DNA of 64,000 nucleotides from Candidatus Latescibacterota bacterium (GTDB taxonomy: Bacteria > Latescibacterota > UBA2968): the NCBI GenBank assembly GCA_965222605.1, contig OZ244960.1, positions 4,960,001 to 5,024,000 of the forward strand, written 5' to 3'. This document shows, one piece after another, positions 2-47,212 of the stretch. A program made the position numbers and the translations under genes. A model generated the notes under the pieces. The model ran no database searches, was not told where the DNA came from, and saw only the letters and a list, made by a program, of their open reading frames with translations. Numbering within the stretch: position 1 is the stretch's first letter; each line of letters starts with the position of its first letter.

Positions 2-1411
2 ACGCCAGACGAACCCAAAATTACCGGGGTTGATCGCTATTTGATGAGCGGGCGGTGGTTTGAACCCGGAGAAGAATTCGTTTGCTTGATACCCAATGAT
101 CTGGCCGAGCTTGTCGGTATTTTTCCCGAGGATGCTGGCACGGCTAAAATTGAAATGCAGGGGCAGATTTTTACGGTGATTGGCATTCTCGATTCTGAAA
201 TGTTTAACAAGTTCAAAGATCTGGATGATGAAAAACTGACCCCTGTTGATACGGTGAAAGAAAAAGACGATTTGGCAGATGCACAGGATCAGGACCCGCG
301 GGTCGTCGCGGCTGCGCCTATTGAGACCTTTACCCATTTGGAATCGACCAATGTGCTTGTCGTACCCTATGAGTATATTCGGGATATCGGGGGTGTGTTG
401 GCTTCGGTGGCGATTGCGAATTTCAAGGATGAGAGCGGGCAGCCCAAGTTGAATTTTGTTCCCGACATCGAGGAGTTTATGGCGCGCGTGTCTTTGACGA
501 TGTTTGTGGGCAAGGATGATGGTGTAACCGTTTATAGTTCGATTGGTTCAACGTCGCTTTCTGGATTGGGCAATTTGTTTATCCCGATCTTGATTGCGGC
601 ACTCATTGTGCTCAATACTATGATGGGTGCTGTGTATGAGCGTTTCCGAGAGATCAGTATTTATTCTTCGGTGGGATTGGCTCCCAATCATATTGCCGCA
701 CTTTTCCTCGCGGAGGCCGGCGTGTTTGCCACACTCGGTGCGGTTTTGGGATATTTGATTGGACAAGTGCTCGTGCTCATACTTTACAATGAGGGATTGT
801 TGGGTGGCCTGGAATTGAATTATTCGTCGCTGTCTGCAATTTCCGCCACGTTGATTGTGATGGCAACGGTATTTCTCTCAGCGCTTTATCCAGCGAAAAA
901 AGCCGCGGATATGGCCGTGCCCGATGTGACCCGCAAATGGGAATTTCCCGATCCGGATGGCGATCGGTGGGTATTTGATTTTCCCTTTACCGTAGGTGGT
1001 ACCGAGGTATTGGGCATGTACTCCTATTTGACCCGGGTTTTTGAATCTTATGGCGAGGGATCGGTAGGTGATTTTGTTGCCGACCACGTAAAGTTCTGGT
1101 CTGAAGATCTCGAGGGTGAACCGCAATACAATATTGATCTGACGGCATGGTTGGCGCCTTATGATCTGGGGATTAGTCAGGAAGTGCAGTTAAAAGCCAT
1201 TCCAACGGGTGAGCACAATATTTATAAAATTGAAGTGGTGATCAATCGCTTGAGTGGCGATGTGGCGTCCTGGAAACGGATCAATCGCGGATTTTTGAAT
1301 GTGTTGCGAAAGCGGTTCCTGGTCTGGCGCACAATTCCAGGCGACATGAAGTTCAATTATGCAGAAGACGGACGCCGGGTGTTGTCTGGCGAAGTCGCGG
1401 CAATAGCATAA
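2..1411 (+). CDS. Large FtsX/MacB-like ABC permease-domain membrane protein, 5' end outside window
   Basis: Frame is open from the window start (TPDEPKITGVDRYLM...). It carries the FtsX-type motif LNTMMGAVYERFREISIYSSVGLAP..IAALFLAE, about 4 TM helices, and a soluble C-terminal domain. Confidence 0.8.
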   Translation, partial: TPDEPKITGVDRYLMSGRWFEPGEEFVCLIPNDLAELVGIFPEDAGTAKIEMQGQIFTVIGILDSEMFNKFKDLDDEKLTPVDTVKEKDDLADAQDQDPRVVAAAPIETFTHLESTNVLVVPYEYIRDIGGVLASVAIANFKDESGQPKLNFVPDIEEFMARVSLTMFVGKDDGVTVYSSIGSTSLSGLGNLFIPILIAALIVLNTMMGAVYERFREISIYSSVGLAPNHIAALFLAEAGVFATLGAVLGYLIGQVLVLILYNEGLLGGLELNYSSLSAISATLIVMATVFLSALYPAKKAADMAVPDVTRKWEFPDPDGDRWVFDFPFTVGGTEVLGMYSYLTRVFESYGEGSVGDFVADHVKFWSEDLEGEPQYNIDLTAWLAPYDLGISQEVQLKAIPTGEHNIYKIEVVINRLSGDVASWKRINRGFLNVLRKRFLVWRTIPGDMKFNYAEDGRRVLSGEVAAIA

Positions 1412-1448
1412 CGTGTAGATTTTGTGAATTTCCTTCTGGGAGGCAATT

Positions 1449-3503
1449 TTGGCAACTGAACCACGAGATACGGAAGAAACAGAAGAGGATCTGGCGGAAT
1501 ACGAACAGATTATGCCAGAGGACGCGCCCTTTGAAGATGGCTTTGGCTGGAAGACGATATGGGCGACCCTGTTCGTTGGGATTATCATGTTGCCGGGGGC
1601 GATTTATTTGGGCCTGGTGACCGGGCAGAGCATGGCTGGCGCGTCTGAGTGGGTGACGATTATTCTCTTTTTGGAGATTGCCAAGCGCTCTTTTGTTCGG
1701 CTCAAGACACAGGAAATTTTGATCATCTATTGGGTCGCCGCAGGGCTGTTGGGCATTGGGGTAAAACTCGGTTCGGGCGCACATCTATACGGCGGGCCTT
1801 TTGGAGGGTTGATCTGGGATCAGTATTTGATTCAGTCACCCGCAGCGCAAGGTCTGGATAAGTATATTCCGGGGTGGGTGACGCCGCCTTTGGATTCGCC
1901 GGTTTATGCCGAGCGCACGTTTGTGCATCCCGACTGGATTTTGCCGGTGTTGATTCTGTTTCTGGCCATGATCATCAATCAGACTGCGCGGCTGTCCTTT
2001 GGGTATGTGATGTTTCGCATTACCAGCGATATCGAGCAATTGCCTTTCCCGATGGAGCCCGTTCACGCACGCGGTGTCACCGCACTGGCTGAGACATCGG
2101 CCAAAACCGAGGGTTGGCGGTGGCGCGTGTTCAGTACGGGAACGTGTATTGGTCTGGTCTGGGGGCTGCTCTATGTGGTTGTGCCCACGTTGTCGGGCAT
2201 TTTTCTGACGGAGACCGTTCAGGTCTTGCCGATTCCGTTTATCGATTTTACAGCCGAGGTAAAGACCATATTGCCCGCTGCCGTATTTGGCATAGGAACG
2301 GATTTGGGGCATTTGTTGATCGGTTTTGTCCTGCCGTTTTACGTGGTGGTCGGATCTTTTATCGGTGCTGTGCTTGCCAATCTGGTGATTAATCCACTGC
2401 TTTATACCTACACAGATATTTTGAGCCGGTGGGCACCGGGGATGACGGCGATTCCCGCAAGTATTTCCAATCGCTTTGACTTCTGGTTGAGTTTTGGAAT
2501 TGGGACTTCATTTGTGATCGCGCTTACCGGGTTTTATATGGTGGGTAAAACCCTGTTGGAACAGCGCAAGGTGCAACAGGAAACAGGGCATCATTCGGTG
2601 AAAATTAGTATGGAGGATTTGCCCGAGGGCCGAGGGGATATACCGATGAAGTGGCCTCTTGTTTTATGGGTCATGGGTTCTTTGGCCGCTATTGGTTTGT
2701 GCCAGTGGCTCGTACCGGAATTTCACTGGTTATGGCTGGTTTTCTTCGCGTTTATTTATACGCCTGTTTCGTCTTATATCGGTGCTCGTATGATTGGTCT
2801 TACGGGCAGCCCTTATGGGGCGAGCATTCCCTATATTCGCGAAGCTGCCATTTTCATGTCGGGGTATAAGGGGGTGGCGGTGTGGTTTGCGCCCATTCCA
2901 CTGCACGATCACGGGCTGGCCGTGCGGCAGTTTAAGCAATTGGAATTGACCAAAACGAAGATCGGCAGTTATATCAAAATGGTGGTGATTACGACATTTG
3001 TGATTTTCCTGTGCAGCTTTTTGTTCTATGAGTTTATCTGGCGGTTGGGTCCCATTCCGTCTTCGACATATCCCTACGTGCAGTTGTTCTGGCCGTTTGA
3101 AGCTACGATGCAAACCATGTGGCTCAAATCGACTTTGCCACCTGGAGAAGTGCAGGGTGCTGCTGGCCTGGAACTGCTGGCGGATATTATTAAGATGAAA
3201 TATATCATCACTGGTTTGGTGTCGGGTGGACTTCTCTATCTGACACTGGTCGCCATCAAGGTTCCCGTGCTGGCATTTTTCGGTTTTGTGAATGGCCTGG
3301 CGCAATGGCCGCATTTTGTCATTTTGAATTTTGCCGGGGCGATGCTGGGGCGATACCATTTTGCCAAGCGGTTTGGCGAGTCCAAATGGCAGGCTTACGC
3401 GCCTATTTTACTGGCGGGTTATTCCTGTGGTATGGGGCTTATTGGCATGACCTCAATTGCCGTGGCTTTGATATCCAAGGCCGTGTCTCAGGTTGTTTTC
3501 TGA
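1449..3503 (+). CDS. OPT (oligopeptide transporter)-like polytopic membrane protein
   Basis: 684 aa with many hydrophobic helices, an acidic N-tail and the motif DIEQLPFPM. TTG start after a GGGAGG RBS. Confidence 0.65.
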   Translation: MATEPRDTEETEEDLAEYEQIMPEDAPFEDGFGWKTIWATLFVGIIMLPGAIYLGLVTGQSMAGASEWVTIILFLEIAKRSFVRLKTQEILIIYWVAAGLLGIGVKLGSGAHLYGGPFGGLIWDQYLIQSPAAQGLDKYIPGWVTPPLDSPVYAERTFVHPDWILPVLILFLAMIINQTARLSFGYVMFRITSDIEQLPFPMEPVHARGVTALAETSAKTEGWRWRVFSTGTCIGLVWGLLYVVVPTLSGIFLTETVQVLPIPFIDFTAEVKTILPAAVFGIGTDLGHLLIGFVLPFYVVVGSFIGAVLANLVINPLLYTYTDILSRWAPGMTAIPASISNRFDFWLSFGIGTSFVIALTGFYMVGKTLLEQRKVQQETGHHSVKISMEDLPEGRGDIPMKWPLVLWVMGSLAAIGLCQWLVPEFHWLWLVFFAFIYTPVSSYIGARMIGLTGSPYGASIPYIREAAIFMSGYKGVAVWFAPIPLHDHGLAVRQFKQLELTKTKIGSYIKMVVITTFVIFLCSFLFYEFIWRLGPIPSSTYPYVQLFWPFEATMQTMWLKSTLPPGEVQGAAGLELLADIIKMKYIITGLVSGGLLYLTLVAIKVPVLAFFGFVNGLAQWPHFVILNFAGAMLGRYHFAKRFGESKWQAYAPILLAGYSCGMGLIGMTSIAVALISKAVSQVVF

Positions 3504-43827: not shown

Positions 43828-46002
43828 TCACAACAAAATTCCCTGAACTGATTCTTCGACAAGTCCAGCCCGAATGCGCTGCGATAGGGTCGTATGTCGC
43901 TCTGCAACCCGATTGTTGCGAACTGCCATCCCCAGAGCCTGTTTTGTACCTACCAGCACGACCAGTTCCCGCGCCCGCGTAATGGCTGTGTACAACAAGT
44001 TGCGCTGTAACATCATATAGTGTTGTGTGGTCAAAGGCATTACCACGGCGCGAAATTCTGCGCCCTGGCTCTTGTGGACACTCATGGCATAAGCCAGCAC
44101 CAACTCATCCAATTCCGAGAACTCGTATTCTAAGACGCGGTCCTGAAACCGCACGCGCAATATATCATCCTCTATTCCGTGAACGCGCCCAATATCCCCG
44201 TTAAAAACATCGCGATCATAGTTATTTCGCACCTGCATCACTTTGTCGCCCACCCGAAAACGGATACCGCCCCGCGTCATTTCCTGTCCCCTGGGATTCA
44301 ACTTGTCTTGCAAGACCCGGTTGAGATTGTTCGCGCCGGTCTCTCCTCGATACATTGGCACCAGTACTTGAATATCTTCAATACTGTCCAGACGATACGT
44401 GTGCGGTAAACGTGCAGCACACAATCCACAAACCGTCTCGACGACCTGATCGGGTTCAGAGACTTCAAGAAAAAAGAAATCCGCATCGCGGTCATTTTGC
44501 ACGTATGGCATTTCGCCGCGATTGATCGCGTGGGCACTGGTAACAATATGGCTCGTTTGTGCCTGCCGAAAGATCTCGTTGAGTTCCACGACTTCTACAG
44601 TGCCAGACGCAATTACATCCTTCAACACATTCCCCGCACCAACCGATGGCAACTGATCGACATCGCCTACCAGGACGACCGAAGCACTGATTGGAACAGC
44701 GCGTAACAGACTGTTCATCAGAACCGTATCGACCATGGATATTTCATCGACAATCAGGGCTTCGATCTCCAGAGGATTTTCAAAATTTTTCTCAAACGCC
44801 ATTTCAGATGGACTAAACTTCAGCAATCTGTGGATGGTTTTGGCCTCATATCCGGTTGCCTCAGACATTCGCTTGGCTGCTCTTCCCGTTGGCGCTGCCA
44901 GTGCGATTGTTTTCTTTCGCGCTTCTAAAAGCGCGATGAGTCCCTTAATGGTCGTTGTTTTGCCTGTTCCCGGTCCACCTGTCAGCACCAGCAAATTGTG
45001 CGACAATGCTTTTTCCAATGCCAATTTTTGACGGGGTGCGAATGTTACTCCATCACCCTGTTCTATCGCCTCAATTTCCGCTGGGATATTGCCCAGTTCA
45101 ATGCGTTGCACCTGGGATAATTGGTAGCACCGCGTTGCCGCGCCCTGTTCGGCATAGTACAAATGCGGCAAATACACCCGCTCGTCATTTACCACAATCG
45201 ATTCTTCGGAGAGCAATTGCGCCACGCACGGTGCGATTGCATCGACGGGCACGTCGAGTGCTTCGGCACAAGATTCGATGAGCGCGTCCTCGGGCAAAAA
45301 AACATGTCCTTCTTTGTCTGCTGCTTCATTGAGGACATGTAAAAGACCGGCTTGAATGCGCCGGTCTGAATGCGCGGGAATGCCCATTTTTTGTGCGATG
45401 CGGTCTGCCGTCAAAAATCCAATGCCCCAAACATCTACCGATAGGCGATAGGGGTTTTCTCGAATCAATTCAACGGCTTCATTCCCGTACCGTTTCCATA
45501 TTTTTACGGCGTATCCCGTGCCCACTTCGTGCGATTGTAAGAATAGCATTACATTGTGAATCTCGCGCTGGTCTTCCCAGGCTTTGATAATCCACTTTGC
45601 GCGTTTGGCTCCCAATCCTTCAACTTCGACCAATCGATCGGGATCGCTTTCGATGACATCGAGTGCTTCTTTCCCAAAGTGATCCACAATCCGCTTTGCC
45701 GTGACCGGCCCGATGCCTTTGATCAATCCCGAACCCAAATACCGCCGCATTCCCTCTACTGTAGATGGATACACGGTCTGGTAGGATTCAATTTTGAACT
45801 GTGCACCATATTGCTTATGGGTTGTCCATTCGCCTTCCAAAACCACGGTTTCGCCCGGGTTGATCGACAGCATTTCGCCCACAATGGTCGCCAGACGGTC
45901 GTTATATGCGGCAGACCCCTCTACCTGCAAACGGGCAACCGTGTATCCATTTTCTTCATTTTGAAATGTAATGCGATCCACAATTCCGCGAAGCTGAGCC
46001 AT
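43828..46002 (-). CDS. recD2: ATP-dependent RecD-like DNA helicase
   Basis: YLGSGLIKGIG HhH, GGPGTGKTT, APTGRAA, DEISM, GDVDQLPSVG, SVHKSQG, LLYTAITRA. Confidence 0.96.
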   Translation of the reverse strand: MAQLRGIVDRITFQNEENGYTVARLQVEGSAAYNDRLATIVGEMLSINPGETVVLEGEWTTHKQYGAQFKIESYQTVYPSTVEGMRRYLGSGLIKGIGPVTAKRIVDHFGKEALDVIESDPDRLVEVEGLGAKRAKWIIKAWEDQREIHNVMLFLQSHEVGTGYAVKIWKRYGNEAVELIRENPYRLSVDVWGIGFLTADRIAQKMGIPAHSDRRIQAGLLHVLNEAADKEGHVFLPEDALIESCAEALDVPVDAIAPCVAQLLSEESIVVNDERVYLPHLYYAEQGAATRCYQLSQVQRIELGNIPAEIEAIEQGDGVTFAPRQKLALEKALSHNLLVLTGGPGTGKTTTIKGLIALLEARKKTIALAAPTGRAAKRMSEATGYEAKTIHRLLKFSPSEMAFEKNFENPLEIEALIVDEISMVDTVLMNSLLRAVPISASVVLVGDVDQLPSVGAGNVLKDVIASGTVEVVELNEIFRQAQTSHIVTSAHAINRGEMPYVQNDRDADFFFLEVSEPDQVVETVCGLCAARLPHTYRLDSIEDIQVLVPMYRGETGANNLNRVLQDKLNPRGQEMTRGGIRFRVGDKVMQVRNNYDRDVFNGDIGRVHGIEDDILRVRFQDRVLEYEFSELDELVLAYAMSVHKSQGAEFRAVVMPLTTQHYMMLQRNLLYTAITRARELVVLVGTKQALGMAVRNNRVAERHTTLSQRIRAGLVEESVQGILL

Positions 46003-46055
46003 CTAAAACCTCGGCGAACATGTTTCTCCCAGCACTTAATCGGAGTAGTAGAGGA

Positions 46056-46084
46056 ATTATACGACACTTGCCGCGGTTTTACAA
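46056..46084 (-). promoter_or_regulatory. recD2 promoter
   Basis: TTGTAA-N17-TATAAT on the - strand. Confidence 0.65.
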
Positions 46085-46172
46085 GTTGTATCAAATTTGC
46101 AGTACACAGAATGTATAAAACCCGTATATTGTTGAAACACAACATTTAACGGCTACGTCACAACGGAAAAGA

Positions 46173-46469
46173 GGTTGACCCGAAAGCTATTGACACACCG
46201 CCTGTACCTGTCGGTGTGATCTGGGGTCCTCGCGCCGTCCCGCCAAGAACTCGCGCGAGGGCCTTTCTTTTTGGTACACGAGATGGTCGTTTTTCGGGCC
46301 AACCATATCACAACTTAAATTTTTTATGAAAAACAAAAAGCACCTACTCGTCCCTCCACCAAATCGCCAAATTTGACGCAAGGAACAAGCAGGTGCCTCG
46401 TGGACTGGTATGGCAACACTGCTGAAACGCTGTGCGTTCCGAAAATATTGTTTTTTTCACAGGCCAGTC
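46173..46469 (-). ncRNA. Candidate structured RNA (two folded domains separated by a terminator-like hairpin); family unassigned
   Basis: Has its own promoter and multiple stems. In the main stems the + strand A-C mismatches become G-U pairs on the - strand. See findings. Confidence 0.55.
46329..46396 (-). terminator. Long hairpin plus U-tract within the structured RNA locus
   Basis: GCACCUGCUUGUUCCU / AGGGACGAGUAGGUGC (16 bp including G-U) plus an inner stem, then UUUUUGUUUUU. Confidence 0.75.
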
Positions 46470-46475
46470 GGAAAA

Positions 46476-46504
46476 AATATAGCCAATCTTATATTTGGGG
46501 TCAA
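46476..46504 (-). promoter_or_regulatory. sigma70-type promoter driving the structured RNA
   Basis: TTGACC-N17-TATATT. The predicted TSS near 46469 coincides with the first base of the first stem. Confidence 0.7.
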
Positions 46505-46579
46505 GGGAGAAAATGGGGCTGGGGCTGTTGGACAAGTTATAGCACTAAATTTTAATAGCTTATGAATGAGGATGATTAA

Positions 46580-47212
46580 ATGAAGTGGTTAGTTTTGGGC
46601 GTTCTGCTCGGATTGTCATGGACAACTTATGCTGAAGAAGATCGCAAGGCGATTTTGTTTTTAGGGGATAGCCTGACCGCAGGTTATGGTCTGGATAAAA
46701 CGCAGGCTTTTCCCGCGTTGATTCAGGCAAAGATCGATTCGCTTGGGTGGGCGTTTGATGTAATCAATGGCGGACTGAGTGGCGAGACATCGGCGGGCGG
46801 TTTGCGGCGGGTCAACTGGTTGCTGCAGCGAAAAATCGATGTGCTGGTGCTGGCATTGGGGGGCAACGATGGTTTGCGGGGGATTCCCGTGTCTGAAATG
46901 GAGCAAAATTTGCAGGGAATTATAGATTTCGTAAAAAATAAATATCCCGATATTCAAATCGCGCTTGTGGGTATTGAAGCACCGCCGAATTTGGGAGAAG
47001 TATATACGACGGCTTTCCGCGCAGTGTTTCCTGTCCTATCAGAGAAAAATCGCGTGCTTTTGATACCCTTTTTATTAGAGGGTGTTGGCGGGATTCCAGA
47101 ACTGAATCTGCCAGACCGCATTCATCCCAATGCTGAAGGACATCGGATTGTAGCAGAAACCGTGTGGCGCGTGCTTAAACCGGTTCTGGAAAAAGTAAGA
47201 AGTGAGAAGTAA
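46580..47212 (+). CDS. tesA: Periplasmic SGNH arylesterase / acyl-CoA thioesterase I
   Basis: GDSLTAG, GLSGETS, GGNDGLRG, DRIHP; signal peptide. Confidence 0.9.
   Translation: MKWLVLGVLLGLSWTTYAEEDRKAILFLGDSLTAGYGLDKTQAFPALIQAKIDSLGWAFDVINGGLSGETSAGGLRRVNWLLQRKIDVLVLALGGNDGLRGIPVSEMEQNLQGIIDFVKNKYPDIQIALVGIEAPPNLGEVYTTAFRAVFPVLSEKNRVLLIPFLLEGVGGIPELNLPDRIHPNAEGHRIVAETVWRVLKPVLEKVRSEK

Follow-up and report, generated by a model that had tools for sequence, protein, structure and literature searches.

A probable composite RNA leader before recD2 in a Latescibacterota bacterium, with a riboswitch-like attenuator candidate

Transcription-terminating ON riboswitches stand before genes for detoxification and export, the fluoride and guanidine classes being examples. 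In EutX/Rli55, according to the consulted part of PMC5821096, a small RNA (sRNA) controlled by an adenosylcobalamin (AdoCbl) riboswitch sponges the antiterminator protein EutV, and the consulted parts of PMC9226507 and PMC5418344 describe antibiotic-responsive attenuators built on leader peptides, those of erm, cat, and vmlR. Here we compare these systems with an RNA locus on the minus strand of a 64,000-nucleotide stretch of contig OZ244960.1 from a Candidatus Latescibacterota bacterium (assembly GCA_965222605.1, positions 4,960,001 to 5,024,000; hereafter the window), where positions 46469 down to 46173 lie upstream of a recD2-type helicase gene. An earlier note, made from the letters of this stretch, had read the locus as an antisense module resembling the phage RNAs P1 C4 and P4 CI. 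On balance, it is probably a composite cis-regulatory leader of two RNA elements, here termed S and M, that has been orphaned from a former gene and in which S acts as a transcription attenuator. To our knowledge, Latescibacterota have no cultured, genetically tractable member and no published work on their RNA regulators, and a literature search combining "Latescibacter" with "riboswitch" gave no paper on such an element among the titles and abstract openings by which it was judged.

Two conserved elements at one locus

Comparison across genomes indicates that the locus joins two separately conserved elements. S (46329 to 46469, minus strand) scores 170 bits with covariance model R2, built from alignment A5, and has 33 consensus pairs and a fold of -58.2 kcal/mol (z -5.2). 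M (46192 to 46273, minus strand) is a hairpin motif of 82 nucleotides (nt) that scores 106 bits with a separate model, R1, built from alignment A2. Searched at the DNA level, 24 of 41 related genomes have the region, nearly full length in 15 congeners at 91 to 95% identity, and about 80 nt from within its second domain recur elsewhere in the same genome, at G000:C1:1044258-1044339, as they do in almost every congener. The order S then M was found only in the window's own family, in genera g1, g9, and g5 and weakly in g3, and the unit is absent altogether from three congeners (G010, G016, and G018) by DNA search and R2.

Judging by its identity within the genus, the S-M unit is still under purifying selection. 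It is 91 to 94% identical across 13 congeners, which exceeds the 79 to 86% identity of recD2 third codon positions in the same genomes; the 120 nt upstream of the -35 box range from 20 to 97%. An alignment of 17 orthologues is conserved from the -35 box downstream and rich in insertions and deletions just upstream of it. That box belongs to a sigma-70-type promoter-like site, TTGACC-N17-TATATT (46476 to 46504, minus strand), which matches the consensus at 10 of 12 positions in a scan that gave three such sites in the region versus 1.1 expected and from which the RNA is predicted to start at 46469.

From this start to 46173 the minus strand folds at -119.4 kcal/mol (z -6.0; 0 of 200 shuffles as good), compared with -91.5 kcal/mol (z -2.1) for the plus strand over the same positions, and the fold takes the form of two separate domains and a terminator. 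The earlier note had proposed an unannotated, promoter-driven structured RNA on the minus strand, and in this it was right. Its supposition that the RNA is undescribed also holds as far as Rfam goes: the covariance models of Rfam 15 (4227 families) had no match in the whole window at gathering score. When expectation (E) values up to 10 were allowed over 45800 to 46800, five chance-level rows appeared, all with an E value of at least 1 and far below gathering scores, and none of them was c4. The second M locus and two other loci gave no Rfam match, and eight S loci of other genera gave none at E values up to 0.1. The note had also named a 6S-like RNA as an alternative; this does not fit, with no Rfam match and with two separate domains plus a terminator in place of a long interrupted hairpin with a central bubble. 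Neither a cobalamin riboswitch nor another Rfam family turned up at the locus.

Element S as a candidate attenuator

The most likely reading of S from its comparative pattern is a new family of riboswitch-like attenuators, that is, a riboswitch candidate. By R2, S is present in 37 of the class's 132 genomes, which represent 14 of its 31 genera and all four families (23 of 30, 3 of 22, 3 of 3, and 7 of 76 genomes), with three or four copies in two genomes. Of 151 genomes sampled across the phylum, 34 carry it, and a single copy lies beyond the class; as far as searched, S appears restricted to one phylum. Among 26 copies that were read, the upstream box at the same distance is TTGAC in 18, a TTGNNN variant in 5, and missing in 3. 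A same-strand start codon follows within 52 nt of the U-tract in 14 of the 26, standing 8 to 52 nt downstream of S in those leaders, which leaves no room for a separate promoter.

The genes behind S differ from copy to copy. They are a small helix-turn-helix (HTH)-like open reading frame (ORF) in seven copies, an ABC exporter in three, a GNAT acetyltransferase and an S-adenosylmethionine (SAM) methyltransferase in two each, a PcfJ-like protein in one or two, and, in single copies, a chloramphenicol-phosphotransferase-like (CPT-like) kinase, an extracytoplasmic function (ECF) sigma factor, and, further off, a MacB-type permease. S thus presents what is seen in leaders of the attenuator or riboswitch type, a structured 5' domain close to a downstream gene on the same strand, and would behave as a 5' leader, not as a device specific to recD2. 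A riboswitch-like leader, which the earlier note had mentioned as an alternative, comes closest to these comparative data for the first half of the locus.

S consists of a closing helix, an A-rich junction, a variable hairpin, the antiterminator strands, and an intrinsic terminator. The first three make up a sensor-like domain (46403 to 46469, minus strand). Its closing helix, 46469-64 with 46408-03, covaries across genera as GACUGG/CCAGUC, GGUUGG/CCAACC, and GGCUGG/CCAGCC; the junction, 46458 to 46446, is invariant in alignment A5; and the inner hairpin, 46440-34 with 46430-24, is maintained by compensatory changes. The closing helix and the inner hairpin had both been drawn in the earlier note, and both stand, whereas a further helix of its domain 1, CAAUAUU/AGUGUUG, is not kept outside the genus.

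The terminator (46329 to 46402, minus strand) has its stem at 46399 to 46340 and its U-tract at 46339 to 46329, and at -38 kcal/mol (z -8.1) it is the long hairpin with U-tract that the note had pointed out. It holds 17 conserved pairs, with one A-U to G-C exchange (six sequences), and six of its pairs are mostly G-U and so fit the minus strand only. A simple terminator scan did not list it.

The 5' arm of this terminator has a second possible partner. In the proposed antiterminator (46389 to 46422, minus strand), two short strands that lie just upstream of the 3' strand of the closing helix, 46422-19 and 46415-12, can pair with the first nine bases of the arm (46397-89), taken as 46393-89 and 46397-94. 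When the segment is folded in isolation, the two-part hairpin comes out as the minimum-energy structure for 18 of 20 copies taken from different genera, and between lineages its helix appears as UGCC/GGCA, CGCC/GGCG, or CGUC/GACG in one half and as GCAGG/CCUGC, GCAGA/UCUGC, or GCGG/CCGC in the other. An alignment made with MAFFT, A7, misaligned the variable spacer and one family and was not used for counting. In the window copy the antiterminator reaches -9.1 kcal/mol versus -38 kcal/mol for the terminator, so that termination should be the default.

We propose, then, that the RNA of S would start at the transcription start of the sigma-70-type promoter and pass from its sensor-like domain into a very stable intrinsic terminator at which transcription would end by default. 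The weak two-part antiterminator would compete for the 5' arm of that terminator, and read-through would require a ligand, a protein, or some other stabilizer of the antiterminator state. A bolder version makes S a true small-molecule ON riboswitch that senses an antibiotic-like or toxic compound, the ligand stabilizing the closing helix and the antiterminator together as a pseudoknot; in the present genome S would have taken on a new use, gating a free RNA in which the M copy titrates the factor controlling an ECF sigma operon. Direct sensing of toxic compounds would fit the acetyl-, methyl-, phospho-, and nucleotidyl-transferases, the exporters, and the ECF sigma factor that stand behind S, and we regard this fuller version as unlikely.

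Attenuation might also be mediated by the ribosome, with a leader peptide sensing translation inhibitors as in the erm, cat, and vmlR leaders. In its favor, resistance-like genes lie downstream, several leaders, among them those of the ECF-operon and APH copies, have short ORFs that enter M and carry strong Shine-Dalgarno sequences, and the ABC-F copy of M has a short leader ORF. Against this, S has neither a conserved start codon nor a Shine-Dalgarno sequence, the RNA starts 9 nt before the only candidate start codon, and a 1-nt deletion in one congener (L011) breaks the frame, for which reasons a leader peptide within S was rejected. The ORFs over M lie in three different frames according to genus, and the M copies behind S have no overlapping ORF with a Shine-Dalgarno sequence. 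We give ribosome-mediated attenuation only a slim chance at this locus, and a riboswitch-like attenuator is the reading of S that we retain.

Element M and the second domain

M appears, from its recurrence in different leaders, to be a second, independent regulatory hairpin motif. It is made up of a main hairpin (46260-54 with 46234-28), an apical part (46250 to 46237), a 3' tail, and a second hairpin (46218-12 with 46200-194), of which the apical part and the tail are nearly invariant. Pairing in the main helix reaches 95% over 40 distinct copies, and five of its seven pairs have changed on both sides, a level that 0 of 500 shuffles reach. Five measures of the whole structure all beat 500 of 500 shuffles and all slid controls, in an alignment fitted to the model, and in the copies before APH-like genes four pairs have changed together.

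With R1, M was located in 30 of the order's 53 genomes and in 31 of the class's 132, mostly in the window's own family; R1 found none in the other classes of the phylum sample. The pattern of the apical hairpin returned 44 public records, 38 of which name Latescibacterota; the six hits outside the phylum were set aside as chance, the model matching only the typed part or giving 20.7 bits. By R1 the present genome has exactly two copies, one behind S and one in the leader of an ECF sigma operon. The latter precedes a membrane ORF of 66 amino acids and the ECF sigma gene, an arrangement that recurs in five genera. Other copies, in relatives, precede genes for an APH(6)-like kinase (APH_6_hur), a Polbeta/DUF4037 nucleotidyltransferase-like protein, an ABC-F protein, a methyltransferase, and a glyoxalase-family protein.

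Several other roles for M were tried and dropped. One frame is open through nearly all copies, but the Shine-Dalgarno starts use three frames, and the covarying stem alters residues, both of which disfavor an M-encoded peptide. Read by eye, the copies have no consistent -35/-10 spacing of either ECF or sigma-70 type, and M was rejected as a promoter. A mimic of the 16S decoding site, a guanidine-II-like ACGR loop, and a kink-turn were each considered, and none fitted the variation in the alignment.

The surroundings of M copies hold further features. Upstream of the second copy lies a third conserved leader (G000:C1, approximately 1043800 to 1044257; L058 1041-1500), whose sigma-70-like promoter (L058 1041-1069) is followed by a long-range stem and then by a tandem pair of U-tract hairpins that resemble terminators. 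Both families of the order have this hairpin pair ahead of M, and no Rfam family matches the leader. After the second terminator comes a mini-ORF of three to four codons with a strong Shine-Dalgarno sequence (L058 1406-1500, with equivalents in L065, L067, and L038), and further on in the same four loci another Shine-Dalgarno sequence and start codon begin an ORF that extends across M. Copies also vary in number and form. Genus g9 carries an extra, truncated M apical hairpin 110 to 190 nt upstream of the full M (L062 1690-1716, L073 1362-1388), and at L069 1501-1582, in the same genus, a truncated and a full M seem to have been fused by deletion. G024 has two full copies in tandem (L068), and G041, with four, has the most of any genome searched; there, one M copy and a short sigma-like ORF are closely followed by a TnpB/OrfB_IS605-type gene (L064 3-1079, minus strand). 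The small ORF that follows the ECF-operon M is broken up, in one congener, by expanded short tandem repeats with units of 7 to 8 nt (L067, approximately 1214 to 1468, minus strand).

In the window, M is enclosed by domain 2 (46173 to 46304, minus strand; -59.3 kcal/mol, z -4.5). The 13-bp helix by which the earlier note closed this domain (46304-46292 with 46185-46173) is present; changes in it within the genus are one-sided, only G-U to G-C or the reverse, and it was not seen in other genera, which makes it genus specific.

It was between the two domains that the note had placed its antisense logic, with two short elements of domain 1 pairing with two sites of domain 2 in the manner of C4 and CI. 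Both 6-nt complementarities exist, GCCUGU (46464-46459) with ACAGGC (46205-46200) and CACGAG (46402-46397) with CUCGUG (46282-46277), and 12 of 17 orthologues retain the second in full. However, they are at chance level, with four such pairs versus 1.85 expected and 15% of 2,000 shuffles reaching four; the first is complete in just 3 of the 17, and neither shows a compensatory change. Domain 1 also occurs in many genomes without domain 2, and no c4 family of Rfam matches. The setting is chromosomal, and by Pfam the neighbors are a RecD2-type helicase and a GDSL hydrolase, not phage genes, so that no phage immunity setting is seen. Having failed the tests of both chance and conservation, the antisense module is now hardly credible.

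Strand, orphaning, and comparison with known systems

The RNA lies in an intergenic gap of 577 bp (46003 to 46579) between divergent genes, those of the recD2-type helicase, its present downstream neighbor (43828 to 46002, minus strand; Pfam AAA_19, HHH_RecD2, OB_YrrC, SH3_13, and UvrD_C_2), and of the GDSL hydrolase (46580 to 47212, plus strand). As the earlier note had it, recD2 has its own promoter-like site, TTGTAA-N17-TATAAT (46056 to 46084, minus strand; 10 of 12 matches in the consensus scan). Contigs of two studies that cover the recD2 coding start end at 46024, one of them then running into adapter sequence, which fits a separate recD2 transcript starting downstream of this site.

These contigs belong to a set from four metatranscriptome libraries of four studies; they are unstranded and mostly 90 to 95% alike to the window, and hence come from relatives. 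Over the RNA, contigs of three runs span from 46173 or 46156 to 46423, 46506, or 46515, and two begin exactly at 46173, the last base of the domain 2 closing helix, with no loose end. None of the four libraries has a contig over 46025 to 46155, a hole that proves nothing and is not used as evidence.

G-U pairs in the main stems, to which the note had appealed, and the fold energies favor the minus strand. Were the plus strand the working one, a block that reads as an ECF-type promoter, TGAAAC-N17-CGTC (46133 to 46161, plus strand, 3' of M), would drive a long 5' untranslated region or an antisense RNA toward the GDSL gene, and the minus-strand structures would be incidental. The block, as TGAAAC-N17-(C/T)GTC, is kept at this place in five loci of two genera, two genera have a similar one approximately 590 to 645 nt ahead of their ECF-operon M copy (L058 909-937, L059), and RNA-library contigs begin at 46156 to 46173 and pass 46506 to 46515. 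On the plus strand, however, the six mostly G-U pairs of the terminator would become A-C and the fold is far worse, and in every other genome read S and M are oriented like the genes that follow them; from one genus to another the RNA unit stays constant but its neighbor on the far side does not. The ECF pattern is not enriched genome-wide (39 found versus 36 expected) and was rejected as a genome-wide promoter. Given the pairs, the fold energies, and the gene orientation elsewhere, we keep the plus-strand reading only as a minor rival with little to recommend it. The conserved block itself may be a target promoter of the sigma factor of the ECF operon.

How a leader came to stand before recD2 is suggested by one congener, G001, in which the order is S, M, a nucleotidyltransferase-like gene, and recD2. 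Because G001 carries this gene between S-M and recD2, most of the genus, including the present genome, has probably lost a nucleotidyltransferase-like gene once controlled by S-M. The same class of gene follows two tandem M copies in G024. A GNAT-like remnant seen by eye downstream of the g9 units was dropped, having no Pfam or NCBIfam support. The link to recD2 that the earlier note had drawn accordingly looks secondary, with another gene intervening in one congener and different genes behind the RNA elsewhere. With the regulated gene probably lost, the leader now lies directly upstream of recD2, a gene with its own promoter, and the orphan S-M unit probably still works, by read-through into recD2 or as a free RNA.

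The latter has been taken up as an explanation of its own, on the logic of EutX/Rli55: S would gate an RNA of approximately 300 nt whose M acts in trans as a decoy for whichever factor recognizes the M of the ECF-operon leader. In its favor are the two M copies of this genome, of which one follows S and has no cognate gene and the other belongs to the ECF sigma leader, and the stronger constraint on the former. Among 16 orthologous g1 loci the M behind S is 97.5 to 100% identical (93.6% in the divergent G001), whereas over the same stretch the ECF-leader M is 82 to 91% identical to the window's copy. S-M has also remained conserved although the gene downstream has apparently been lost, and RNA-library contigs from two studies terminate at 46173 without a loose end, a weak hint. 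On the other side, same-strand genes or gene remnants follow S-M in G001, in G024, and in genus g9, which favors action in cis, and three congeners do without the unit. We consider a free-standing RNA possible but doubtful, and a cis-acting leader that has lost its gene remains the explanation that we prefer.

Several points weigh against that explanation. Two of the 20 antiterminator segments fold otherwise, the covariation of the antiterminator was read by eye from printed sequences, and the z-scores of the isolated segments, from -0.05 to -2.2, are not significant alone. The resistance-like names of the genes behind S are distant matches, all with NCBIfam scores below the curated cutoffs, and the small HTH-like ORF matches no Pfam family. 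S is single copy in this genome and lacks a cognate gene, and the loss of that gene is argued from a single congener in which the gene itself is split into two frames. One pair of M is unpaired in 7 of the 40 distinct rows, and the two columns concerned fall at third codon positions of one open frame. Finally, two RNA-library contigs pass the predicted start into or beyond the promoter (46506 to 46515 and further), which a transcript begun at 46469 could not produce; they could stem from plus-strand RNA, DNA carry-over, or the merging of transcripts. As to the gene of G001, its two overlapping frames (L169 382-1253) could reflect a frameshift or an assembly error.

Two testable RNA families, S and M, have been defined. 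The regulon of S looks like a drug or xenobiotic response, with GNAT and methyltransferase genes, CPT- and APH-like kinases, a nucleotidyltransferase, an ABC exporter, ABC-F, and an ECF sigma factor, and orphan riboswitch candidates with such gene sets have revealed new signals before. S allows an in vitro test of direct antibiotic sensing by natural RNAs, with no need for culturing, and its orphaned copy would be a natural case of a leader outliving its gene.

Set beside the systems with which we began, the locus resembles each in part. With P1 C4 and P4 CI it has in common a short, promoter-driven structured RNA that ends in a terminator hairpin; it differs in matching no model, in the want of support for the defining pairings, in its chromosomal, non-phage setting, and in that its first half is a widely used gene leader. 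With the leader-peptide attenuators, as far as the consulted parts of their descriptions go, it shares a premature terminator upstream of resistance-like genes and, in some M leaders, short ORFs with Shine-Dalgarno sequences, but S has no conserved leader ORF, and the ORFs across M are conserved in neither frame nor peptide. EutX/Rli55, in the portion of its description consulted, is alike in the succession of promoter, sensor, and terminator followed by a domain bearing a copy of a motif shared with mRNA leaders, so that short and long forms would be expected; it is unlike the present locus in its AdoCbl aptamer, in that M is not an ANTAR dual hairpin, and in that genes follow S-M in relatives, which makes action in cis at least ancestral. 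Riboswitch and attenuator leaders come closest. S differs from them in matching no Rfam family and, at this locus, in being followed by a second motif and no cognate gene; it is like them in its structured domain at the transcription start, with a closing helix and invariant unpaired junction nucleotides, in a terminator whose 5' arm is shared with a weaker alternative helix, and in its position directly upstream of modifying enzymes, exporters, and regulators.

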